Below are positions 4,194 through 62,024 of a stretch of 64,000 nucleotides of DNA, one piece after another. The translations under genes were made by a program, and so were the position numbers. The stretch covers positions 20,780 to 84,779 of the forward strand of contig JACOYO010000002.1 of NCBI GenBank assembly GCA_016181845.1, read 5' to 3'. Each line of letters begins with the position of its first letter. Position 1 is the stretch's first letter. The notes under the pieces are model-generated. The model saw nothing but the letters and a program-made list of their open reading frames with translations, searched no databases and was not told the origin of the DNA. The DNA is from Parcubacteria group bacterium (GTDB taxonomy: Bacteria > Patescibacteriota > Minisyncoccia > Phycocordibacterales > 21-14-all-47-15).

Positions 4194-4473
4194 TGAGGTT
4201 TTGTTGTTGATATGTTTGTTGAAAACGAGTTTATAAAAAAGTAATTCCTGTTGAAAAAAATGTGACAAAAAAATATTTTTCTGAAAAACCAAAATAAAAA
4301 ATTTCTTTTCCACAGGAAACGCTTTGGTTGAGAGTAAAAAACCTTTTCTTTTTCGGAATAATAAAAATTATCAACATATCAACAGACATCATATCAATAT
4401 ATAATAATTTCTAACTTATATTCATTTATTATTATTTATTCAAATCGGACAAAAAATATTTTTCAACGCAAAC
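4194..4473. promoter_or_regulatory. candidate oriC: DnaA-box cluster plus AT-rich unwinding tract between dnaA and dnaN
   Basis: TTTTCCACA near 4300; tandem TTATCAACA/ATATCAACA/ATATCAATA at 4363-4395; AT run TATATAATAATTTCTAACTTATATTCATTTATTATTATTTATT. Confidence 0.5.
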
Positions 4474-5574
4474 ATGAAAGCAGAAACAATAATTGAAAAA
4501 ATAAAAATAGCCGCAACGACCGCGGAGAAAATGACCGGAAAAAACCTTTCTTTACCGGCGTTAAAATCAATTCTTCTTATTGCAAAACAAAAATCGGTCA
4601 TTATAAAAGCAACCAATCTTGATATAGGGATTGAATACGAAATCCCAGCAAAAGTTGAAGAAGAGGGGGTTGCCGCCATACCAGGCGCTATTCTTGGCGG
4701 AATGCTTTCCGGATTATCCGGAGAAGAAATCGTTTCCATTGAATCGGTAAACAACAATGTCCTTTTTTCAACAAAAAAGAATTCAACAGTGTTAAAGACA
4801 ACCCCGTACGAAGACTTTCCTCTCATTCCTAAAATTTCCAACGGAGAAAAAATGATTATCTCGGCGGAAAAATTAATATCCGGATTGAGGTCGGTGTGGT
4901 ATAGCGCCGCGCTATCGGACATTAAACCGGAAATAGCGAGTGTATATTTGTATCAAAATGAAAAAAACATCGTTTTTGTTGCAACAGATTCTTTTCGTTT
5001 GGCTGAAAAAAAGATAGAAAACAAAAAAGACACAAACGCTGACGGGGTCATTGTTCCGCTTAAAAATGTTTCAGAAATAATAAGGGTTTTTGGAGAAAGA
5101 AGTGGTGATATTGAGATACTTTTCAACAAAAACCAAATTTCGTTTGAAAACAACGGCGTTTATGTTTTTTCAAGGACAATAGACGGTGTTTTTCCAGATT
5201 ACCAGCAGATTATTCCAAAAGAACACACGACCGAGGCGATTGTTTTGAAAAAAGATTTTCAAAACGCGCTAAAAATAGCAACAATTTTTTCTGAAAAATT
5301 TAATCAGGTTGTTTTTACCATTAAACCAAAAGATTCTTATTTTGAAATAAAATCAAAAAATAGCGCTATCGGCGAAAATACAACAACCATGGATGCATCA
5401 ATTTCAGGTGAAGACATTGTTATGGGTTTTAACGCAAAATATATTTCTGACAGCATGCAATCAATCGCCGAAGACAGCATTCTTCTGCAGTTTAACGGCC
5501 CAAACAAGCCACTGGTGATAAAAGGACTGTCAAACAAAAGTTTTCGTTATTTGGTAATGCCAATGAATCGTTGA
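4474..5574 (+). CDS. dnaN: DNA polymerase III beta sliding clamp
   Basis: 366 aa; position after dnaA; clamp-like three-domain pattern. Confidence 0.9.
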   Translation: MKAETIIEKIKIAATTAEKMTGKNLSLPALKSILLIAKQKSVIIKATNLDIGIEYEIPAKVEEEGVAAIPGAILGGMLSGLSGEEIVSIESVNNNVLFSTKKNSTVLKTTPYEDFPLIPKISNGEKMIISAEKLISGLRSVWYSAALSDIKPEIASVYLYQNEKNIVFVATDSFRLAEKKIENKKDTNADGVIVPLKNVSEIIRVFGERSGDIEILFNKNQISFENNGVYVFSRTIDGVFPDYQQIIPKEHTTEAIVLKKDFQNALKIATIFSEKFNQVVFTIKPKDSYFEIKSKNSAIGENTTTMDASISGEDIVMGFNAKYISDSMQSIAEDSILLQFNGPNKPLVIKGLSNKSFRYLVMPMNR

Positions 5575-14875: not shown

Positions 14876-14914
14876 GAATCACGAAACTCTTCTTCATCAT
14901 GAGTTTCGTAATTC
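14876..14914. repeat. family-C palindrome (GAATCACGAAACTC-TTCTTCATCAT-GAGTTTCGTAATTC) in the 5' UTR of the lipoprotein gene
   Basis: Imperfect 14-bp arms; same arms at 27445, 15549/15672 and 54661/54791. Confidence 0.7.
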
Positions 14915-15409: not shown

Positions 15410-15563
15410 ATTTTCGTAATTAACAGTAGATTTATACATACGGTCGTTCAAGGAAGAATAACCGTATGTATTTCTTTTCAAGTTTGGTATACCTTTGCGA
15501 TAAATGGATAGCGGATTTGAAAAGGAACATAAGGATAAAATTATCGTGAATTACGAAACGTAA

Positions 15564-15665
15564 AGACGTCCGACTTCTGAAGTGGTAAAACATAGGCATT
15601 CGCCACAAATAAAGTAATTACCACGTCAGAAGTCGGACGTCTTACACATCAGAGGTCGGACGTCT
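15564..15665 (+). repeat. family-A element copy 2 (full hairpin 15564-15642 plus an extra half-site 15646-15665), nested between family-C arms at 15549-15561 and 15672-15684
   Basis: Direct sequence comparison with copies 3-5. Confidence 0.85.
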
Positions 15666-17774: not shown

Positions 17775-17976
17775 CAAAGAAACAAAGAGCAGCCCTTTGT
17801 TGGGGGATAACTTTTTGGGGACTTAGTTCCCAAGAATATATAGAAAGATGTCTTACAAAAGATGGCGCTTTCTTTCGATATATCGAAAGGAACGAAGTAT
17901 GGTTAGCCCTTTGTAGATGGTATGCCAGTATACTGGCATAGTCTTTGTCACTTAGTGGCTCAACTACTAAGTTGAT

Positions 17977-18078
17977 AGACGTCCGACCTCTGCCGTGGTA
18001 AAACATCGGCATTGGCCACAAATAAAGTAATTACCACATCAGAGGTCGGACGTCCCACACAGCAGAAGTCGGACGTCT
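17977..18078 (+). repeat. family-A element copy 3 (17977-18054) plus half-site (18063-18078), then GTTTCGCAATTCAAAGTAT motif
   Basis: Direct comparison. Confidence 0.85.
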
Positions 18079-18155
18079 TCGCGTTTCGCAATTCAAAGTA
18101 TAACAATAAAAAAACCGCCCCTTACGGCCGGTTTTTTGTTGCGTCGCGACTCATT

Positions 18156-26513: not shown

Positions 26514-26586
26514 ATAATAGAGGCGGCAGGGATCTTTCCTTACAGGAACGGTATAGTCTTCGTATCCGCCCTGGGCGGATATACTC
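26514..26586 (-). ncRNA. candidate structured RNA: 9-bp closing stem GCAGGGATC/GATCCCTGC enclosing two hairpins (three-way junction)
   Basis: Stems read by eye; the closing stem duplicates the tRNA-Lys T-arm/acceptor sequence GATCCCTGCCG. Confidence 0.3.
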
Positions 26587-26656
26587 AGACTTTTCGATCC
26601 CTGCACGCGAGCAAAATTGTTTGCTCGCTCGGGCGGATTCTCCGCTTTGCTCCGAA

Positions 26657-26729
26657 TCCGCCCGGCAGGGATCGAACCTGCGACCGTCAGCTTAAAAGGC
26701 TGCTGCTCTACCAACTGAGCTACGGGCGG
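26657..26729 (-). tRNA. tRNA-Lys (anticodon TTT)
   Basis: Manual cloverleaf: acceptor CCGCCCG/CGGGCGG, D-arm GCTCAGTTGGTAGAGC, anticodon loop CTTTTAA, T-arm GCAGGTTCGATCCCTGC, discriminator A. Confidence 0.85.
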
Positions 26730-26965
26730 ATGTAACTTTTATTTTTTGAAGAAACTTAATGTCCCCAGTCTCTCTTTTGATTTCTACCAAAACAGCTACG
26801 GACGGATGTAATTTTTTGTTCAAACGTGCCGTAAAGAAATACAAAAGTTTTTTCAAAAAGTTCTCGGATCTCCTCGCCTTGCTCGGCCAGACTTTTAGAA
26901 AAGACTTTTGTATTTCTCACGGCCTCCTTGCATAACTTCGTAAAATGTAGCATACAATTGATATA

Positions 26966-30765: not shown

Positions 30766-30858
30766 GTAGAGAAGCGTTTGCCCTCGTCGTTCAACTCCGA
30801 CACTTCGGTCGGAGTCCCGACTCCGAGGGTGTCGGGATTATTACAATGAAATAAAATT

Positions 30859-30930
30859 GCCCTCGTCGTTCAATGGATAGGACGCAAGCTTGCGGAGCTT
30901 GTAATAGAAGTTCGATTCTTCTCGAGGGCA
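30859..30930 (+). tRNA. tRNA-Arg (anticodon read as GCG)
   Basis: Manual cloverleaf: acceptor GCCCTCG/CGAGGGC, D-arm GTTC-AATGGATA-GGAC, anticodon stem CAAGC/GCTTG loop TTGCGGA, T-arm AGAAG-TTCGATT-CTTCT, discriminator A. Confidence 0.75.
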
Positions 30931-31167
30931 TAAAAATAATGAGCGCAAAGCGTTTGCTTTGCGCGAATGTATTTTTATAGCCATCAAGAAGAATCGAAAG
31001 GCGGAGGCCGCGAAGCCGAATCCGAAGCGTAGCGCAGGATTCGTGGCCGAGCCGGGGTCGCGAGCCCAAAAATTAAGGAGTGAAACGACTATAATTTTTG
31101 AGGACTTGTGACCGATTCTTCTCGAGGGCATAAAAATAATGAGCGCAAAGCGTTTGCTTTGCGCGAA
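30914..31167 (+). repeat. 200-bp periodic unit: 54-bp direct repeat (tRNA-Arg 3' end + 37-nt trailer) at 30914-30967 and 31114-31167, enclosing a 76-bp GC-rich module (30991-31066) shared with the tRNA-Gly locus
   Basis: Direct sequence comparison; the two 54-mers are identical. Confidence 0.85.
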
Positions 31168-33719: not shown

Positions 33720-33802
33720 GGAGGGTTGCGCCGAATGGTAAGGCACCAGTCTTGAAAACTGGCGGGTGAAAGCCCTTAGAGGTTCGAGTCCTCTACCCTC
33801 CG
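33720..33802 (+). tRNA. tRNA-Ser (anticodon TGA), class II with long variable arm; embedded in a ~21-bp extended leader/trailer stem
   Basis: Acceptor GGAGGGT/ACCCTCC, anticodon stem CCAGT/ACTGG loop CTTGAAA, variable arm CGGGTGAAAGCCC, T-arm AGAGGTTCGAGTCCTCT, discriminator G; flanks TTCCGCCACAGTGC / GCTTTGTGGCGGAA pair. Confidence 0.75.
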
Positions 33803-33868
33803 CTTTGTGGCGGAATATGAGGACATTTAAAATTTCATGGAGGTTTCAAGATGATAAAAATTGAAAAT

Positions 33869-35424: not shown

Positions 35425-35799
35425 ATGAAATACTTGGGCATTGATTATGGAACCAAACGCGTCGGCGTAGCTCTTTCCGATGACGGCGGGACGATGGCTT
35501 TTCCGTATGGCGTTATTCAAAATACTCCAGCGCTTTTTGGCGAGCTGAAAACGATTATCAAAAAACATGAGATTTCGTGTATTGTCGTCGGAGAGTCGCT
35601 TGATTATTCAGGCAAACCAAATCCGGTCATGGAAGAAATAAAAACATTTGTTCGTGAATTGGAAGCAAAAATTGGTATCGCGGTTCAGTATGAGCCGGAA
35701 TTTTTGACCTCCGCGCAAGCGCGCCGCATTCAAGGCGATTCGCACACGCTTGATGCCTCCGCCGCGGCGATTATTTTGCAAAGTTTTTTGGATAAATAG
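35425..35799 (+). CDS. ruvX: putative pre-16S rRNA nuclease / Holliday junction resolvase-like RuvX (YqgF)
   Basis: MKYLGIDYGTKRVGVALSD N-terminus. Confidence 0.8.
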   Translation: MKYLGIDYGTKRVGVALSDDGGTMAFPYGVIQNTPALFGELKTIIKKHEISCIVVGESLDYSGKPNPVMEEIKTFVRELEAKIGIAVQYEPEFLTSAQARRIQGDSHTLDASAAAIILQSFLDK

Positions 35800-35876
35800 A
35801 CGTCCGACCTCTGAATTGGAAACATATCGGCATTGGCCGTAAATAAAGTAATTACCACATCAGAGGTCGGACGTCT
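35798..35876 (+). repeat. family-A element copy 4, between convergent ruvX and the LysM-M23 gene
   Basis: Direct comparison. Confidence 0.85.
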
Positions 35877-35919
35877 CACGCTATTGATATATGGGATGGT
35901 TTTTGATTTTGGAAAAGTT

Positions 35920-46137: not shown

Positions 46138-48063
46138 ATGTTTTCTTACCTTCAGAAAAAAATCATTGCGGCAATGCTTGTGGTGGCGATTATATCTCCA
46201 GCGGTGCTTTTAATACAGCCGAAAAAAGCGGAAGCGGCGTGCGGATTTGGTGGCGGAGGGGGTGGAGGCACGCCCGAAACAAATCCAAATATACAGGGAC
46301 CAGTAGACACAAGCGGCATGATTCAGGCTATGCGTCAAATCAAGCCCCGACTTGCTATTCAACGACTTATCGAAGACACACCCCTTGCGGTGAGCGTGTC
46401 AACTAATATTTTTAAATCAGGAGGAGCGTCAACTATTTCCATTCCTCAAACCAGTTTTGACGCAAACGCGCTTGATGGCGGCGCTACATTGGCTCTTGTG
46501 GTAAGCGAACCTGTTTTGCAAGCTATTAATATTGCGCAGAAAGCAATAGAGTGCATTACCTCCATCGCGAGTTCAATAACATCATTTGCGACCGATTCGC
46601 TGGCAATAAAAGAAACCGTGCTTGACGGCATCGCGTACGCAATCATCAATCAAATCATTGCCGATATGTTAAATGATATTCAGCGTTGGGCGATTACCGG
46701 CTTCAAAGGAAACCCTGTATTTTTAACCAACCCTGAACGGTACTTCACCAATTTAGCGGACCAAGTGCTTGGCGTATTTTTAAATAAGCTTGCCGGCGTC
46801 AACTTGTGCAATATCAGATGGAACGCGCTGATTGAAATTTCTCTTAGCATTGATTTGGGATACCAACAGCGTGCGCAATGCACTTTTTCTGAAATAGGCG
46901 CGAATTTTGACCGGTTTATAAATGATTTTTCCCAAGGCGGATGGGGCGCATGGATTAAACTCACCACCGAAACGCAAAATAATCCCTATGGCGCTTATAT
47001 TCTCGCGACAGAAGAACTTGCAAAGCAAACCGGCACGGTCCCGGGCGGACTTCTCGGCAAAAAACTGCTTGAGCTTCAATGGGGCAAGGGCATCATATCT
47101 CTGACGAAGTGTACATACGGAGAAATTTCTCAAAATGATGTGGATTCTGGGTATATCAATGAAAATCTTCCGGCGCTTGATAAATCAACTATTGGAATGT
47201 GTAAAGACGCGCGGGGTAATCCTGACCCCAACGCTACCTCTAACACCACGCCCGGAAATATCATTGAAGATTCCATAAACAAAACACTTGGAGCAACGAC
47301 CGATCGTATTGTGGCGGCTGATGAAATCAACGAGACCATGGCGGCTCTTTTATACGGACTTTTGGTCAAGACATTTTCTTCAAATGAAGGTTTTGCCGGC
47401 GCCGACTGGAGCGGCATATCGTCGCAGATTGGCAGTGGGGCGAGCAATAAAGCGTTTGCCGACGTAAAAAGCGAGATTTTCGCGCGCGTGGATTCGTTTA
47501 CCATAAGCGAGACAGAATTCAAGAAACAAAAAGAACGAGCGCTCGGCGTTTTGAAAGAAAGCGAAAAAGCGTTGAATGAAGTCGCCGCGTGCTACATAGA
47601 CCAAATTACACTCTACAAACAATACCTTGACCCCGCGAATACCCGCCTGCTTTCTATCGGCTCCGGCAATCCATTTTTGCAGTTTGTGCAGGCGGAAGCC
47701 GAACAAAAAATACAGCAGAGCCGCGATACGCTTGCGCAAAAAATAACTCCGCGCGTGGCGCCGCTCCAAAATAGCGTCACGCAATCAAACGTATTTCTTT
47801 ATGAAATAGAGCAGACGCGCGCGACGATTGTTTCAGCAGATACATTTAACAAACTGGATGAAAAGACCAAGATATTTTTTGAGACGCGCGACCGATGGGA
47901 CGACCCGCTTGAAGCGGCGGCGGCGGAAAATGAAGCGGACTCCATCAAAACCGAGATTGAACCGATTACCGCGCAGGCAAAAGCAGATTTGCCGCCATGT
48001 CAAACAACTCGCCAGCAGATGCGCGACTTTTTCAAGATAAACGACATACAGCCCGCGGCGTGA
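46138..48063 (+). CDS. large secreted hypothetical protein (signal/TM, poly-Gly CGFGGGGGGG), first gene of the T4SS-like block
   Basis: ORF track; composition. Confidence 0.5.
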   Translation: MFSYLQKKIIAAMLVVAIISPAVLLIQPKKAEAACGFGGGGGGGTPETNPNIQGPVDTSGMIQAMRQIKPRLAIQRLIEDTPLAVSVSTNIFKSGGASTISIPQTSFDANALDGGATLALVVSEPVLQAINIAQKAIECITSIASSITSFATDSLAIKETVLDGIAYAIINQIIADMLNDIQRWAITGFKGNPVFLTNPERYFTNLADQVLGVFLNKLAGVNLCNIRWNALIEISLSIDLGYQQRAQCTFSEIGANFDRFINDFSQGGWGAWIKLTTETQNNPYGAYILATEELAKQTGTVPGGLLGKKLLELQWGKGIISLTKCTYGEISQNDVDSGYINENLPALDKSTIGMCKDARGNPDPNATSNTTPGNIIEDSINKTLGATTDRIVAADEINETMAALLYGLLVKTFSSNEGFAGADWSGISSQIGSGASNKAFADVKSEIFARVDSFTISETEFKKQKERALGVLKESEKALNEVAACYIDQITLYKQYLDPANTRLLSIGSGNPFLQFVQAEAEQKIQQSRDTLAQKITPRVAPLQNSVTQSNVFLYEIEQTRATIVSADTFNKLDEKTKIFFETRDRWDDPLEAAAAENEADSIKTEIEPITAQAKADLPPCQTTRQQMRDFFKINDIQPAA

Positions 48064-48065
48064 TT

Positions 48066-48144
48066 AGACGTCCGACCTCTGAATTGGTAAAAAATCGGCA
48101 TTAGCCGCAAATAAAGTAATTACCACATCAGAGGTCGAACGTCT
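48066..48144 (+). repeat. family-A element copy 5, immediately upstream of the VirB6-like gene
   Basis: Direct comparison. Confidence 0.85.
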
Positions 48145-48163
48145 TAAAAAACAATATATTACC

Positions 48164-50038
48164 ATGAAGAAATTTATTATCACCATAATGCTCATCAGTG
48201 TCCTCGGAGGGATATTTTCTCCGTCGGTTGTTCGGGCGGGTCCTCTAGACGCTGTTGTCGAAGCCACTACAGGGTCTTTTATAAATGACGCGATGATAAA
48301 TCTTGCTGATAAATGGCTTTCGCTCATGGCGCGCGGGCTATATCTTTCCGGAGCATTGCTCGATGCGTCCATTGATTTTTCTCTCAACAAACTCAAAGAA
48401 TATACCAAGGGTTCGGTAAGCAAAGCATGGGCGGCGGGACGCGATATTGCCAATATCTTTTTTATATTCATTTTGCTCTACATTGCCATCGCGACTATTT
48501 TGCAGATTGAAGGATTCGGTACCAAATCGCTTTTAGTCAGAGTGGTGCTTGTCGCGCTTTTGGTAAATTTCAGCTTGGTGATTACCCAGGTGGTGATAGA
48601 TGCCTCAAATGTGCTTGCCGTTGCGCTGTTTGAAAATATTAAAGGCGGCAATAGCGATGTGTCAATTGCCTTTATGAGGGGATTGCGACTGGAATCATTG
48701 TACGATATAGGAAAAAAAGGAACAGATGTTGCCTTTTCCTTTACGCCCGCGCAAATGTTGACAGTCATGGTATTCGGTTCGCTCTTCATTTTAGTTGCCT
48801 CGTTTGTCTTTCTTGCCGCCGCCGTTTTGTTTGTTACGCGGAGCGTCGTTCTCATTTTCTTGATGATCCTTTCTCCGCTTGCTTTTTTGGCATGGGTACT
48901 GCCCGGCACATCAGGATATGCTCAAAAATGGTGGGAGACGCTTCTTCACCAGTCGTTTTTCGCGCCGGCGTATCTTTTTGTGATTACCGCTGTGCTCTTG
49001 GTACTGCAAGGCAATGCACAAGGAGGGGTTGAAGCGGTGACCAAAGGCAAAGTTTTGGACACTAGCGGAAATACTTTTGTGGGAGCATTGATTAGTTCAA
49101 ATAAGGATAGTTTTGGCATTATTCTTAACTTTGCCATTCTGATTGGGATGATACTCGCGGCGCTTATCGTCGCAAAAAGCATGGGGGCGTACGGCGCCGA
49201 AACAGTGATAAAATGGGGGCACAACGCGCGGAAATGGGGGCAGGGAGCCGTCGGCAGAAATACGGTCGGGCGTTTGGCAAGCATAATGGCAGAATCCGGC
49301 GCAATGAAAGGTATTGCGGCAAAAGCTCCTCGCCTCGGCAGTTTGATGTACGGCACGCTTGATGCCGCCAGCGGTTATGGTTTTGGCGGCGCGGCCGGAG
49401 GTTATCGCGGCGCCGTTGAGAGAGAAGCAAAACGCCGTGTTGCCATTGGCAAGAGAATTGCCGGCGGAGAAGGAGGAAAAGAGCGACTGCAAGCATACAA
49501 GGAGAATCTTGAGAAAAAACCACTTATATCTCGCGTGGCGTCGGGGGCAATCGCCGGAACGATGTTTGCTCCTGGCGTTGGAACGGTTGTTGGCGGCGCT
49601 GTTGCAGGGCTCGGCGCTATGATGCCGCGGCGAGAAGGAGAAAAAATGGCGGTCAAGAAATTAAATGAATATCAGGCGATGGAAGACAAATTAAGTCGTA
49701 GAATGGAGCAGGATATGACCACCCTGCAAGCAAGCGCCGGTCTTTCGCCCGGTGATTTACAGGGACTTGATAAAGATAAGCAAATTGAAAAACTTGGTTC
49801 AGCTGTTGAGGCAACGATAGACAAACTAAATAAAGAATTGCAAAATCTTTCTTTACAGCTACAAACAAGCGGTCCAACTGAAACGTTAAATAAACAGATA
49901 CAGGCGACCAAGCAAGGCATACGAGATATACGAAATACCCAGAGAGATATTGAAAATTCACGAGATAAGCTTAATACGGCACAGAACTGGAGAGAAAAGA
50001 AAGAAGAGAAAAAAGAAGCAACAAGTAAAGAAAAATAA
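48164..50038 (+). CDS. polytopic membrane protein, VirB6/TrbL-like, with long Gly-rich/coiled-coil C-terminal tail
   Basis: Signal peptide then five or more TM helices; topology typical of VirB6/TrbL; genomic context with VirB4 and PrgI-like. Confidence 0.5.
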   Translation: MKKFIITIMLISVLGGIFSPSVVRAGPLDAVVEATTGSFINDAMINLADKWLSLMARGLYLSGALLDASIDFSLNKLKEYTKGSVSKAWAAGRDIANIFFIFILLYIAIATILQIEGFGTKSLLVRVVLVALLVNFSLVITQVVIDASNVLAVALFENIKGGNSDVSIAFMRGLRLESLYDIGKKGTDVAFSFTPAQMLTVMVFGSLFILVASFVFLAAAVLFVTRSVVLIFLMILSPLAFLAWVLPGTSGYAQKWWETLLHQSFFAPAYLFVITAVLLVLQGNAQGGVEAVTKGKVLDTSGNTFVGALISSNKDSFGIILNFAILIGMILAALIVAKSMGAYGAETVIKWGHNARKWGQGAVGRNTVGRLASIMAESGAMKGIAAKAPRLGSLMYGTLDAASGYGFGGAAGGYRGAVEREAKRRVAIGKRIAGGEGGKERLQAYKENLEKKPLISRVASGAIAGTMFAPGVGTVVGGAVAGLGAMMPRREGEKMAVKKLNEYQAMEDKLSRRMEQDMTTLQASAGLSPGDLQGLDKDKQIEKLGSAVEATIDKLNKELQNLSLQLQTSGPTETLNKQIQATKQGIRDIRNTQRDIENSRDKLNTAQNWREKKEEKKEATSKEK

Positions 50039-59771: not shown

Positions 59772-59874
59772 GGCAAGAGTCATTTTTCTCTGCTACCATA
59801 TTATTTAGTTGCGCGGGCCATAGTTTAGTCAAAATTGAACCTCGCTCTATAGTTTGCTATAATAATATAGCGCT

Positions 59875-60540
59875 ATGACGAAAATTCTTATTAAAAAAGA
59901 AGCCATTGAACTTCGCAGTCAGGGATATTCGTATAAGTATATAGCCCAAAAACTCCGCGTTTCTAAAAGCACATTGAGCAGCTGGCTTTCCTGTGTCTCG
60001 TATGTGCCAAATGAAGAAACTATGCAGAGAATAGAACAAGCCAGAGAAAAATCAGGTAAAGCAAAAAATCGGCAAAAGGTTGAATCAATAACAAAAGCGC
60101 AAGAAATGGCAAAAAAAGACATAGGCAGACTTACGCGACGGGATTTGTTTATGTTGGGGGTCGGCCTGTACATAGGAGAAGGCAGTAAAACAATGAATTT
60201 AGTCAGAATAATTAATGCAAATCCAAAAGTGATATCCTTTGCTATCAGATGGTTTAAGGAGATATGCGGCTTGAATAACGAACATTTTTCTATTAGGATT
60301 CATTTGTACCCTGATAACAATGTTGAAGATTGTCTGCGTTTTTGGTCGAGGTCTTCCGGGCTTCCACGAAAACAATTTCAGAAGACACAAATTGATTTGA
60401 GGACAAATAAAAAAATATCTAAAAGAGGAAAACTTCCTTATGGAACAGCGCACATAACAATAAAAAGCAGAGGAAGAAAAGAGTTCGGAGTATTTCTAGC
60501 CAGGAAGATCCATTTTTGGATGGAAGAAGTGGTGAAATAA
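59875..60540 (+). CDS. HTH + LAGLIDADG-like homing-endonuclease-domain protein, immediately upstream of tRNA-Gly
   Basis: N-terminal resolvase/Hin-like HTH (GYSYKYIAQKLRVSKSTLSSWL); LFMLGVGLYIGEGS resembles a LAGLIDADG motif. Confidence 0.4.
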   Translation: MTKILIKKEAIELRSQGYSYKYIAQKLRVSKSTLSSWLSCVSYVPNEETMQRIEQAREKSGKAKNRQKVESITKAQEMAKKDIGRLTRRDLFMLGVGLYIGEGSKTMNLVRIINANPKVISFAIRWFKEICGLNNEHFSIRIHLYPDNNVEDCLRFWSRSSGLPRKQFQKTQIDLRTNKKISKRGKLPYGTAHITIKSRGRKEFGVFLARKIHFWMEEVVK

Positions 60541-60546
60541 AAACTT

Positions 60547-60617
60547 GCGGGATTAGTTTAATGGTAGAACATCAGTTTTCCAAACTGATGGCAGGAGTTC
60601 GATTCTCCTATCCCGCA
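60547..60617 (+). tRNA. tRNA-Gly (anticodon TCC)
   Basis: Acceptor GCGGGAT/ATCCCGC, D-arm GTTT-AATGGTA-GAAC, anticodon stem TCAGT/ACTGA loop TTTCCAA, T-arm AGGAG-TTCGATT-CTCCT, discriminator A. Confidence 0.8.
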
Positions 60618-60875
60618 TAAAAATAAGGAGCACAAAGCGAAGCTTTGGGCGACTATATTTTTTATAGCGGGTATGGAGAATCGAAAGGCGGAGGCCGCGA
60701 AGCCGAATCCGAAGCGAAGCATAGGATTCGTGGCCGAGCCAGGGTCGTGAGCGCATATTTATAAAGAACGTAGCGATTATATAAATAGCGACTCCTGACC
60801 GATTCTCCTATCCCGCATAAAAATAAGGAGCACGAAGCGAAGCTTTGGACGACTATATTTTTTATAGCGGGTATG
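60601..60875 (+). repeat. 200-bp periodic unit: 75-bp direct repeat (tRNA-Gly 3' end + 58-nt trailer including the alr ATG) at 60601-60675 and 60801-60875, enclosing the shared 76-bp GC-rich module (60678-60753)
   Basis: Direct comparison; 2 mismatches between repeats; module 70/76 identical to the tRNA-Arg locus. Confidence 0.85.
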
Positions 60876-62024
60876 AAAAAAAAATCTATTGATACCAAGG
60901 GTCTACGCACGTGGATTGAAATTGACACGAAAGCGCTGAAACATAATTTCAGTATTTTTCGCAATAAAATTGAGCCGAAGGTGCAATTGATGGCCATAGC
61001 AAAGTCAAACGCTTACGGTCATGGGCTGGTGCCGTACGCAAAGACGATGGAGCGTTTTGGCGCTGACTGGCTCGGTGTTGATTCAATCAAAGAAGCGCTT
61101 CGGTTGAGAAAAGATGGAATAAAATGCCCGATTTTGGTGCTTGGTTATACGCTTCCTGAAAATATCTCGCTTGGCGCTCGTTACGCGATTGACCTCACAG
61201 TTTCCACAAAAGAAGGGCTTTCATATTGCGCCAAACTTCCTTCGAGCGACAAACAAAAACTCCGTATCCATTTGAAAATTGATACCGGAATGGGACGGCA
61301 GGGTTTTTTTGCGGAAGACATGGCGGCAGTCGCGCGGTTTCTCAAAAAGAATTTTTCAAAAAACACTATTGCTGGCGTGTATACGCATTTTGCCACGGCA
61401 AAAAATCCGAGTTTCCCGAAAGAGACGCTTGAGCAGATAGGGCGTTTCAAAAAAGCAGTCGCCATACTGCATAATGCCGGCTTCACGCCAATTCGTCACG
61501 CGTGCGCCACGTCCGGCACTATCCTTTTCCCTTCGGCGCATTTTGATATGGTTCGTATCGGCATTGGCTTATTTGGTCTTTGGCCAGCAAAAGAAGTGCA
61601 AGCCGCGTATGAAAAGCGTATCTCTTTGAAACCGGCGCTTTCGTGGAAGACCATTATCAGTGAAGTAAAGACGTTTCCTAATGGGAGCGGTATCGGATAT
61701 GACCTCACCGAAAGATTGCCGGCAGGTTCTCGCATTGCCGTTTGTCCTATCGGATATTGGCACGGCTACCCGCGCGCGCTTTCAAGCATAGGCAGAGGGC
61801 TGATACGCGGAAAAATCGCAAAAATAACAGGCCGTGTTTCCATGGATATGATAGCAATTGATGTAACAAAGATTGCCAACGCGCGGGTAGGGGACGAGGT
61901 CGTTTTGATTGGTTGTGATAAAAACGCCTGTATAACTGCCGACGAGCTGGCGTTTCTTGCCGATACCACCAATTATGAAATAGTTACGCGGATTAACCCG
62001 CTTATCAAAAGAATATATTTATAG
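60873..62024 (+). CDS. alr: alanine racemase
   Basis: AIAKSNAYGHG PLP-lysine motif. Confidence 0.85.
   Translation: MKKKSIDTKGLRTWIEIDTKALKHNFSIFRNKIEPKVQLMAIAKSNAYGHGLVPYAKTMERFGADWLGVDSIKEALRLRKDGIKCPILVLGYTLPENISLGARYAIDLTVSTKEGLSYCAKLPSSDKQKLRIHLKIDTGMGRQGFFAEDMAAVARFLKKNFSKNTIAGVYTHFATAKNPSFPKETLEQIGRFKKAVAILHNAGFTPIRHACATSGTILFPSAHFDMVRIGIGLFGLWPAKEVQAAYEKRISLKPALSWKTIISEVKTFPNGSGIGYDLTERLPAGSRIAVCPIGYWHGYPRALSSIGRGLIRGKIAKITGRVSMDMIAIDVTKIANARVGDEVVLIGCDKNACITADELAFLADTTNYEIVTRINPLIKRIYL

Follow-up and report, generated by a model that had tools for sequence, protein, structure and literature searches.

What stands behind a tRNA gene when the tRNA's 3' end recurs a short distance downstream, and why should it stand there? 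The question is raised by two loci in a 64,000-nucleotide stretch of the genome of a Parcubacteria group bacterium (contig JACOYO010000002.1; the whole stretch is called the window here), where tRNA-Gly(UCC) and tRNA-Arg(GCG) are each followed by a copy of their own final segment, with a GC-rich module in between. The reading preferred here, held with slightly more than even confidence, is that each locus carries one tRNA-linked structured RNA unit with the architecture of the tRNA-linked repeats (TLRs) of Escherichia coli, yielding a read-through small RNA in a tRNA-minihelix scaffold. The unit shares the strand of the tRNA and follows immediately behind the terminator hairpin of that gene; its structure is conserved through compensatory changes on the tRNA strand. 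It is present in some relatives and absent from others, and its tandem arrays gain and lose units.

Anatomy of the Two Loci

ARAGORN places four tRNA genes in the window, in agreement with Rfam: Lys at 26656-26730 (minus strand), Arg at 30858-30931, Ser at 33720-33803, and Gly at 60546-60618. Behind tRNA-Gly and tRNA-Arg, the order is a tRNA ending in segment B1 (tRNA positions 56-73) and then segments C, D, E, and B2. C runs from an A-tract through a GC hairpin to a U-tract. D repeats tRNA positions 72-56 in inverted orientation, and B2 repeats positions 56-73 directly. These two copies pair with each other in a stem designated P1, with the conserved core E between them. Scores given for R1 refer to a covariance model built from 31 units. 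The features are as follows.

60547-60617 by Rfam (75 bits) and 60546-60618 by ARAGORN, plus strand: tRNA-Gly(UCC)
60600-60617, plus strand: B1 of the Gly locus, the final 18 nucleotides (nt) of tRNA-Gly, C56 to A73
60618-60666, plus strand: C1 of the Gly locus, trailer hairpin with A-tract, GC stem-loop, and U-tract (from sequence and fold)
60667-60683, plus strand: D of the Gly locus, inverted near-copy of tRNA-Gly 72-56, GCGGGTATGGAGAATCG, 15 of 17 positions (direct reading)
60684-60799, plus strand: E of the Gly locus, conserved core (alignments; R1, 131 bits)
60800-60817, plus strand: B2 of the Gly locus, direct copy of tRNA-Gly C56-A73, 18 of 18; 3' strand of P1
60818-60875, plus strand: C2 of the Gly locus and the first 9 nt of a second D (GCGGGTATG) (from sequence)
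30859-30930, plus strand: tRNA-Arg(GCG), with B1 at 30913-30930 (ARAGORN, Rfam)
30931-30979, plus strand: C1 of the Arg locus, native terminator hairpin and U-tract, scored as terminator-like on both strands
30980-31130, plus strand: unit D-E-B2 of the Arg locus (R1, 118.8 bits)
30980-30996, 30997-31112, and 31113-31130, plus strand: D (GCCATCAAGAAGAATCG), E, and B2 (18 of 18) of the Arg locus
31131-31167, plus strand: C2' of the Arg locus, second copy of the terminator hairpin without U-tract, then CGCATGTTAGAAAC

An initial annotation of this stretch, made from the letters alone, had reported a repeat spaced by 200 bp after tRNA-Gly and the same layout at tRNA-Arg. Both are real. The Gly repeat (60600-60675 versus 60800-60875) comprises 76 nt with 2 mismatches, starts one base earlier than the 60601 first given, and runs from C56 in the T-loop through the trailer to the ATG of alr at 60873-60875; its part at 60818-60875 is a secondary copy of 60618-60675 that ends on this start codon. 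The Arg repeat (30913-30967 versus 31113-31167) is identical at 55 of 55 positions and likewise begins at C56, again at a spacing of 200 bp. The shared GC-rich module also holds in a pairwise comparison of the two loci, with 93% identity between 60677-60752 and 30990-31065, as do the TGACC that closes both tails immediately 5' of the tRNA copy and the homology of the trailers, which are ~80% alike. C1 of the Gly locus, a homolog of the tRNA-Arg trailer hairpin, is a terminator-like spacer that separates tRNA-Gly from the module.

The inverted near-copy D, which occupies the 17 nt immediately 5' of the module, had been overlooked; at the Arg locus, GCCATCAAGAAGAATCG agrees with the reverse complement of tRNA-Arg 56-72 at 15 of 17 positions. 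Both units begin 49 nt past the tRNA end on the tRNA strand, and beyond B2 a partial second copy follows, of 37 nt (Arg) and 58 nt (Gly). A covariance-model search of the window finds exactly two copies of R1.

Structure of the Unit

Across the family, E consists of AAAGGCGGAG(G/S)C, a variable hairpin (P2), GCCGAGCC, a single nucleotide, and a stem (P3) with a variable distal hairpin, the strands of P3 being GGGUCGYGAG ... CUYGUGACC or co-varying versions. At the Gly locus, the order is AAAGGCGGAGGC, the variable hairpin P2, GCCGAGCC, and the P3 stem GGGUCGUGAG...CUCCUGACC with its variable distal hairpin. P1 closes a three-way junction with P2 and P3. This closing stem resembles the acceptor/T-stem minihelix of the neighboring tRNA, with E in the place of the T-loop, and the whole unit D-E-B2 measures ~150 nt. 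Terminator-like hairpins stand 5' and 3' of it.

RNAalifold predicts the three-way junction from a MAFFT-based alignment in which 16 of 26 pairs carry compensatory changes. Among 105 distinct sequences aligned to the model, 94.4% of the cells are paired, two-sided changes are seen at 24 of the 26 pairs, and the score for covariation reaches 0.48, compared to at most 0.083 in controls with slid partners; the alignment of these 105 sequences was fitted to the model and its figures lean to the structure, a bias of which the MAFFT-based RNAalifold result is independent. Two-sided changes occur at all nine P1 pairs. In 30 of 31 units, the fold of the tRNA strand is more stable than that of its complement; the tRNA strand also has more G-U pairs (84 versus 49), and one P3 pair is G-U in 20 sequences. 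The strand-biased folding and the G-U pairs argue that selection acts on a single folded strand with the polarity of the tRNA, for which an RNA is the simplest candidate. A minus-strand RNA was rejected on the worse fold in the same 30 units. The fold of the whole Gly locus has a z-score of -7.9.

D shows a common feature in 33 distinct loci, a near-perfect complement at positions 56-65 and a loose one at the acceptor part, 66-72. In units linked to Lys, transfer-messenger RNA (tmRNA), and formylmethionine (fMet) genes, a hairpin interrupts D precisely at the junction of acceptor and T-stem. The window holds one such arrangement downstream of tRNA-Lys (~26530-26655, minus strand), an inverted 3'-end copy split as ATCCGCCCG - hairpin - GCAGGGATCGAA; no R1 core follows it in the window. 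Upstream of the same gene, at ~26731-26810, lies a degenerate copy of the tRNA 5' part.

A protein-coding module was discarded, since the Arg unit offers no start codon for the 25-codon open reading frame (ORF) that begins at the ATG in the Gly D and the two units differ in ways that fit stems instead. No Rfam model of a self-cleaving ribozyme or a group I intron matches, and a hammerhead-type core was not seen in the junction sequences when these were compared by eye with the consensus. A group I intron in the tRNA was also rejected, since no Rfam intron match exists and the tRNA is intact without splicing; the tRNA group I introns described for Patescibacteria lie in the anticodon loop at position 35/36 (PMC13011429).

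Distribution of the Family

A scan of one genome per species for the 21-nt module block AAAGGCGGAGGCCGCGAAGCC gave 18 hits. Four of them (L002, L003, L004, and L007) are chance matches in coding DNA of unrelated bacteria. The 14 true hits come from metagenome-assembled genomes (MAGs) of the candidate phyla radiation (CPR)/Patescibacteria, namely, Paceibacterota, Lloydbacteria, Campbellbacteria, Saccharibacteria, and "SKS1.bin43"; wherever the upstream flank is contained in the locus, the hit lies directly 3' of a tRNA gene, with various isotypes and the same layout. A metagenome scan with a looser pattern yielded 81 loci, and 69 of 96 pattern matches have a same-strand tRNA upstream, mostly 61 to 65 nt from the core. 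The remaining matches are mostly chance in high-GC DNA (about seven metagenome hits of this kind, in coding DNA, were set aside), cuts at contig ends, or copies behind tmRNA and intron-bearing tRNA genes, which ARAGORN had missed in that pass.

R1 finds 130 matches in 620 kb of sampled CPR loci. A same-strand tRNA or tmRNA lies at most 90 nt upstream of 83 of them; 15 stand behind another unit, and for 8 more a tRNA is found within 700 nt; of the remainder, 13 are located at contig ends and 11 have no detected tRNA. At least 106 of the 117 assessable copies are located behind a tRNA or tmRNA gene or in an array behind one, with 15 tRNA isotypes and tmRNA represented. The repetition of the architecture in these 130 matches means that the sequence facts of the two window loci are not chance, and the recurrent tRNA-associated element that had been suspected is confirmed by the copies behind 15 isotypes and tmRNA in the genome and metagenome scans. 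Among the 2.9 million viral contigs of IMG/VR, the sole match is a chance one in a high-GC contig without a tRNA, and a viral origin was rejected on this ground. Rfam returns tRNAs and noise only, for the whole window at gathering thresholds and for 60400-61000 at E values up to 10. A full-text literature search for "tRNA-linked repeat" gave nothing on CPR, and one on Patescibacteria/CPR with tRNA-associated RNAs gave only the group I intron work in the anticodon loop. The CPR family is large and apparently undescribed.

The family repeat always starts at C56 and, in 22 of 29 loci, extends for 17 to 23 nt up to the discriminator base; longer repeats (26 to 77 nt) are the minority. Retention of just the P1 strand and the 3' processing site would be expected to give a right end at the discriminator base. 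The spacing of the repeat ranges from 169 to 226 across the family and is 199 in the orthologous Gly locus of a Lloydbacteria MAG (L102), so that an exact 200-bp period was rejected as a mechanistic constant.

Other core classes share the D...B frame, at L015 3400-3640, L116 2252-2340, and L025 ~4410-4560. Examples between inverted and direct tRNA-end copies are GATCGAAGCCCG(A/G)TTGAG... and AAAGGC-hairpin-GCACCCGCGACCGTAGGGCGA. Their presence in the same frame indicates that the tRNA-linked design is broader than the R1 family.

The distribution bears on the old view of the E. coli repeats, according to which such sequences are decaying remnants of local tRNA duplications, produced by unequal crossing-over and internal deletion and without present function. 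Partial tRNA copies are indeed common on both sides of the window's tRNAs (a 5' copy at 30779-30794 before tRNA-Arg, the flanks of tRNA-Lys, and a 5' remnant of tRNA-Gly at 59813-59840), and the arrays described below expand and contract through recombination between repeats. Against this stands a core with an exact 21-nt block behind 15 isotypes in several lineages (Saccharibacteria, Paceibacterota, Lloydbacteria, and Campbellbacteria), and a core shared in this way cannot derive from each local tRNA. The core has no match to the Rfam tRNA model, and 24 of its unit's 26 pairs covary. Decay of pseudogenes is largely excluded by the shared core and the covariation and is regarded as highly improbable.

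Filled and Empty Sites

Two relatives of the Arg locus, L109 (neighboring protein 78% identical) and L110 (63%), have an identical tRNA-Arg(GCG) in the same gene neighborhood without the element. In L109, the trailer shows the same type of hairpin, and its U-tract leads into CCGCGTTAGAAAAC. In the window, D-E-B2 comes after hairpin and U-tract, then a second hairpin without U-tract, and only then CGCATGTTAGAAAC, at which the sequence resumes that of L109 beyond its U-tract. The hairpin and U-tract at the element-free site identify the trailer as the tRNA's own terminator, and the comparison places the beginning of the new DNA right after the U-tract, the new DNA comprising D, E, and a locally templated B with a copy of the hairpin. 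An insertion of B1-C1-D-E at the T-loop is equivalent in sequence except for the U-tract argument. The initial annotation had taken the whole 200-bp unit as the element; this is weakened by the terminator hairpin at L109 and by the majority of family members, which repeat just the 17 to 23 nt ending at the discriminator base.

At the Gly site, L103 (Alr 76% identical) has tRNA-Gly(UCC) without the element, which together with L109 and L110 shows gain or loss of the element among relatives. The Lloydbacteria MAG L102 (Alr 87% identical) carries the orthologous Gly element with a core 95% identical; here, ~15 nt separate B2 from the alr ATG, and there is no long repeat. This marks the 76-nt repeat up to the alr start codon as an extension specific to the window lineage, and its inclusion of the ATG is not part of the design of the element, as had been supposed. 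Most simply, the extension is a gene conversion or unequal exchange templated by 60600-60675, which would have been joined at the microhomology of the shared ATG as its right junction. The alr start codon is no artifact, given the mostly constant length of the Alr homologs (75 to 87% identity): four of six have 383 residues, and two are called at 386 and 396 amino acids.

L103 also contains, at 1886-2460, a MazE/PemK toxin-antitoxin pair and a 104-amino-acid ORF between tRNA-Gly and alr, in the position of the repeat unit in the window.

Gain and Loss of Units

Arrays of two to three diverged units stand behind single tRNAs in L008, L009, L013, L014, and L015, and an array of two to three units also occurs in L036. 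Among metagenome contigs that are nearly identical, a difference of a single unit is seen between L025/L051 and L027/L045 and between L036 and others such as L024, with the breakpoints in short direct repeats. The mean core identity is 0.64 within genomes, compared to 0.59 between genomes; the Arg and Gly cores of the window are 79% identical, compared to 95% for the Gly orthologs. On these values, a strong concerted evolution inside genomes was rejected. Paralogous cores that are little more alike than cores from different genomes point to an old family with occasional gain and loss and no recent amplification.

L074 contains two 226-nt units, 98% identical (293-518 and 2465-2690), which flank a 2.2-kb segment with three ORFs, one of which looks like a histidine phosphatase type. 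No tRNA was detected on this contig, and it is the only cargo case seen.

Such patterns could suggest a miniature integrative element, a nonautonomous segment B1-C1-D-E of ~200 bp whose recombinase is encoded elsewhere and which inserts at T-loop position 55/56. With it would come a substitute 3' end for the tRNA, the original one (B2) would be left as the repeat on the attR side, and the arrays would be serial integrations. The repeat always runs from the T-loop to the tRNA 3' end, as do the sites of tRNA-targeting integrases; tmRNA genes are also targeted; diverged units are stacked behind one tRNA (L015, L009, and L013); and the presence and absence among relatives and the two identical units around the cargo of L074 fit as well. 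However, each copy would need an attP of its own tRNA, for 15 isotypes and tmRNA, and a matching D, and integrases create neither. No integrase occurs at the loci examined, and the viral contigs give nothing beyond the one chance hit. The U-tract at the Arg locus, placed as in L109, lies to the left of the new DNA and is missing after the second copy, which indicates insertion behind the terminator and not in the T-loop. The covariation and the strand-specific G-U pairs, finally, mean selection on a folded single strand. An integrative origin is considered unlikely.

Origin of New Copies

A second alternative starts from the two orientations of the tRNA end. It regards the units as essentially selfish products of retrotransposition or template switching, copied beside tRNA genes through an RNA or nascent-strand intermediate. 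D would resemble a primer-binding site for a tRNA 3' end or arise by snap-back extension from the terminator hairpin, and the T-loop hexamer CGATTC/GAATCG would serve as microhomology between the local tRNA gene and a donor unit. D starts right after the terminator U-tract, that is, at the 3' end of the terminated pre-tRNA, and continues as the complement of the tRNA end. Both junctions of E lie at the same T-loop position, 55/56, the sole sequence that every tRNA and every unit have in common. The duplicated tRNA segment ends at varying points on the right (18 to 77 nt), and the new DNA has locally templated direct and inverted copies around a foreign core.

Several features run counter to this scheme. 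D lacks the complement of CCA and of the discriminator base. B2 is followed by TAA, CAT, CCG, or CCC and never by CCA (window units, L010, L012, L013, L016, and L043; genes without CCA), so B2 was not copied from a mature tRNA. No reverse transcriptase is encoded near any locus examined, and a survey reports group II introns to be absent from Patescibacteria (PMC13011429). If D were templated, it should be perfect, yet it typically has 1 to 5 mismatches beside a perfect B2. Strong conservation of E, along with its covariation, speaks for a function over and above selfish spread. A retro or template-switch product is regarded as possible but doubtful.

A further alternative makes the unit a self-propagating, tRNA-flank-specific element whose RNA or folded strand helps its own targeting. 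D would act as a guide that pairs with positions 56-72 of the tRNA or pre-tRNA, and the junction at T-loop 55/56 would mediate joining or template switching, through which both the inverted and the direct copy are acquired. If true, the unit would represent a novel type of RNA-guided mobile element, one that does without any gene of its own, and the E. coli TLRs could be accounted for in the same way. Such self-targeting is judged distinctly unlikely.

For the preferred reading, a tRNA-linked structured RNA unit, new copies would arise by DNA-level events at the terminator, with the local tRNA gene as a template for both D and B2. Recombination or gene conversion between the direct repeats would then lead to expansion, contraction, and extension.

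Proposed Expression, Processing, and Function of the Unit

In a mechanism compatible with this structured RNA, read-through of a leaky tRNA terminator would transcribe the unit, by analogy to rrA, rrB, and rrF of E. coli. Enzymes of tRNA maturation (RNase P, RNase Z or RNase E, and perhaps the CCA-adding enzyme) may cut out and stabilize the ~150-nt RNA by way of the minihelix, the tRNA-like helix and the copied 3' processing site guiding the excision. The conserved junction (AAAGGCGGAG ... CGAGCC.GGG) would be the working part, probably a protein-binding site.

Several points weigh against this proposal. Read-through, processing, and the mature ends are all drawn by inference, as is the route of a unit to a new tRNA with both ends retemplated. 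Simple processing needs no match between the helix and the neighboring tRNA; the match may instead reflect the origin of the copy or an interaction with that tRNA. The module alone folds no better than shuffled sequences (z-score of about -0.7), the source of the fold signal being the closing stem and the P3 hairpin. The acceptor half of D is weakly complementary, with mismatches in 30 to 50% of the loci at positions 66-72, and A-C types outnumber G-U types among the D mismatches (34 versus 21). This weak outer half implies that the full 12-bp minihelix is not strictly maintained. In addition, B2 is identical to the tRNA at 18 of 18 positions while D has 2 mismatches, and a perfect B2 beside an imperfect D requires ongoing gene conversion or selection.

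The Gene Upstream of tRNA-Gly

The locus contains a second feature, on the 5' side of tRNA-Gly, which the initial annotation had tied to the repeat as a gene of the homing-endonuclease type.

59875-60540, plus strand: gene of a 221-amino-acid helix-turn-helix (HTH) protein

The protein has an N-terminal HTH (Pfam HTH_23, E value of 1.6e-6), and HTH families match residues 3-60. Searches of PHROGs and NCBIfam give HTH or transposase N-terminal matches only, and Pfam holds no LAGLIDADG family for it at E values up to 1. A weak similarity to I-DmoI among PDB sequences covers residues 83-143 (E value of 0.002 with the single sequence and 0.015 to 0.03 with a profile), the region of the GLYIGEG motif, and the invariant motif G-x-G-L-Y-I-G-E-G-x-K is present. 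Two AlphaFold models (mean predicted local distance difference test scores of 84.9 and 78.2) have no significant Foldseek match in the PDB, and the alpha-beta-beta-alpha-beta-beta-alpha fold of LAGLIDADG proteins is not found in the protein. With no Pfam match, no Foldseek support, and only weak I-DmoI hits, the LAGLIDADG identity is not established, and an endonuclease identity is unproven.

More than 1,000 CPR proteins of ~222 amino acids belong to this family, and in all five other contexts examined the gene ends 6 to 28 nt upstream of tRNA-Gly(UCC). The core model finds no R1 unit in these five contexts; the homolog contexts L116 and L117 carry a unit of another core class. L102 and L103 have tRNA-Gly(UCC) without the gene, and between the old promoter region and the ORF of the window, at 59813-59840, there remains the decayed 5' portion of a tRNA-Gly like that of L103. 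The gene is absent where the element is present (L102) and present without R1 units, which separates it from the element: it is a distinct insertion, specific to tRNA-Gly(UCC), that lies 5' of the tRNA and does not belong to the 3' element, and it behaves like a tRNA-Gly-specific mobile gene. The supposed link between gene and repeat fails on the same comparisons. What remains of the tRNA-associated mobile or recombinational system first proposed is a recurrent, tRNA-linked element that is gained and lost; the homing-endonuclease system was rejected as an explanation, as gene and element occur separately among the relatives.

Other Repeats in the Window

On the 5' side of tRNA-Arg, a 79-bp insertion (30779-30857) is present that L109 and L110 lack. 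After an opening copy of tRNA nt 1-16 and two GC hairpins, it closes with CCGAGGGTG, for which pairing with the copied acceptor strand is possible. It resembles a miniature pseudo-tRNA, a 5' counterpart of the 3' repeat. No further copy occurs in the window or in the fetched loci, and the insertion was dismissed as a repeat family. An interspersed repeat family of ~80 to 117 nt, centered on the palindrome GACGTCCGACCTCTGA...CAGAGGTCGGACGTC, occurs in both orientations at the following positions.

1806-1915, 15536-15665, 17962-18102, 35783-35899, and 48051-48168, both orientations: palindromic interspersed repeats

A separate motif, TGAATTACGAAAC, lies near 14901, 27442, 54664, and 54790.

Significance

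Among the E. coli TLRs, only three rRNA-linked members have been characterized in function (Hfq and CsrA binding), and the same design of terminator, inverted tRNA end, structured core, and direct tRNA end is now seen in very distant bacteria with tiny genomes. The CPR family is a candidate new class of structured RNAs, with sequences sufficient for modeling and experiment. Filled and empty sites fix the limits of the new DNA and provide a comparative handle on how a sequence gains both orientations of its neighbor's 3' end. For annotation, the partial tRNA copies at these loci are not prophage att scars, and a repeat of this kind can provide the 5' leader and even the start-codon context of a downstream gene, here alr.

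Comparison with Known Systems

The initial annotation had not recognized the arrangement, which can be named: it is the architecture of the E. coli tRNA-linked repeats (PMC8144298). TLRs have been cataloged in E. coli since 1978 (Egan and Landy 1978; Rudd 1999; as summarized in PMC8144298). In this species, 22 TLRs occur at ten loci, one to five per locus, and each closes with 18 to 19 bp that exactly repeat the 3' terminus of the upstream gene, which codes for a tRNA or 5S rRNA (PMC8144298). The 5S-linked members rrA, rrB, and rrF lie between terminators T1 and T2 and give rise to small RNAs by read-through past T1, and the tRNA-linked members have no known function (PMC8144298). RtT/rttR of the tyrT-tyrV operon are members of this group, RtT being Rfam family RF00391. 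At the tyrT-tyrV locus, 178-nt units each end in AATCCTTCCCCCACCACCA, which starts in the T-loop, and the tyrV units each contain the inverted copy GGGGAAGGAT; the minimum free energy fold closes a multihelix junction with that stem.

The CPR units share with these repeats the position directly 3' of a tRNA (in E. coli also a 5S) gene on the same strand, the unit end of 18 to 19 nt that repeats the 3' end of the upstream gene from the T-loop, the tandem arrangement of one to five units with the last one partial (3.14 units at tyrT), the placement between two terminators, and the internal inverted tRNA-end copy that closes a junction (GGGGAAGGAT ... AATCCTTCCCC in tyrV). In the window itself, the position 3' of a tRNA, the identical 18-nt end, and the partial second unit are all found. 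In contrast, no sequence or model homology between the two groups is detectable. The Rfam model of RtT finds four copies in the E. coli locus L101 (133 to 138 bits) and none in the window (60400-61000 at E values up to 10) or in L102, and R1 has no match in the E. coli tyrT-tyrV locus. The CPR family has its own three-way-junction core behind 15 isotypes in several CPR lineages, its tRNA genes lack an encoded CCA so that the repeat ends at the discriminator base, and its units contain no conserved ORF like tpr.

Integrative elements that target tRNA and tmRNA genes resemble the CPR units in the direct repeat of the tRNA 3' segment from the T-loop, the additional use of tmRNA, the tandem insertions, and the patchy occurrence among relatives. 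The CPR unit differs in its size of ~150 to 200 bp and its lack of a recombinase gene, with no tyrosine or serine recombinase in the ORF lists around both loci or in L074. Each CPR copy also matches a different tRNA and carries an inverted copy, the insertion apparently lies behind the terminator, and a single-strand structure is conserved.

RNAs built on a tRNA scaffold, such as the tRNA-like domain of tmRNA and spacers of tRNA operons like 3'ETS-leuZ, offer an analogy to the CPR unit. As in these RNAs, the ends of the unit would pair into an acceptor/T-like helix, with cotranscription with a tRNA and probably a dependence on tRNA nucleases. Unlike in them, the functional domain of the CPR unit replaces the T-loop and not the anticodon or D region, the helix copies the neighboring tRNA, and no coding or tagging function is evident. 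Of these RNAs, 3'ETS-leuZ is mentioned together with the TLRs (PMC8144298). The element behind tRNA-Gly and tRNA-Arg is a new, well-supported variant of the tRNA-linked-repeat design, with a structured core that is widespread in CPR.

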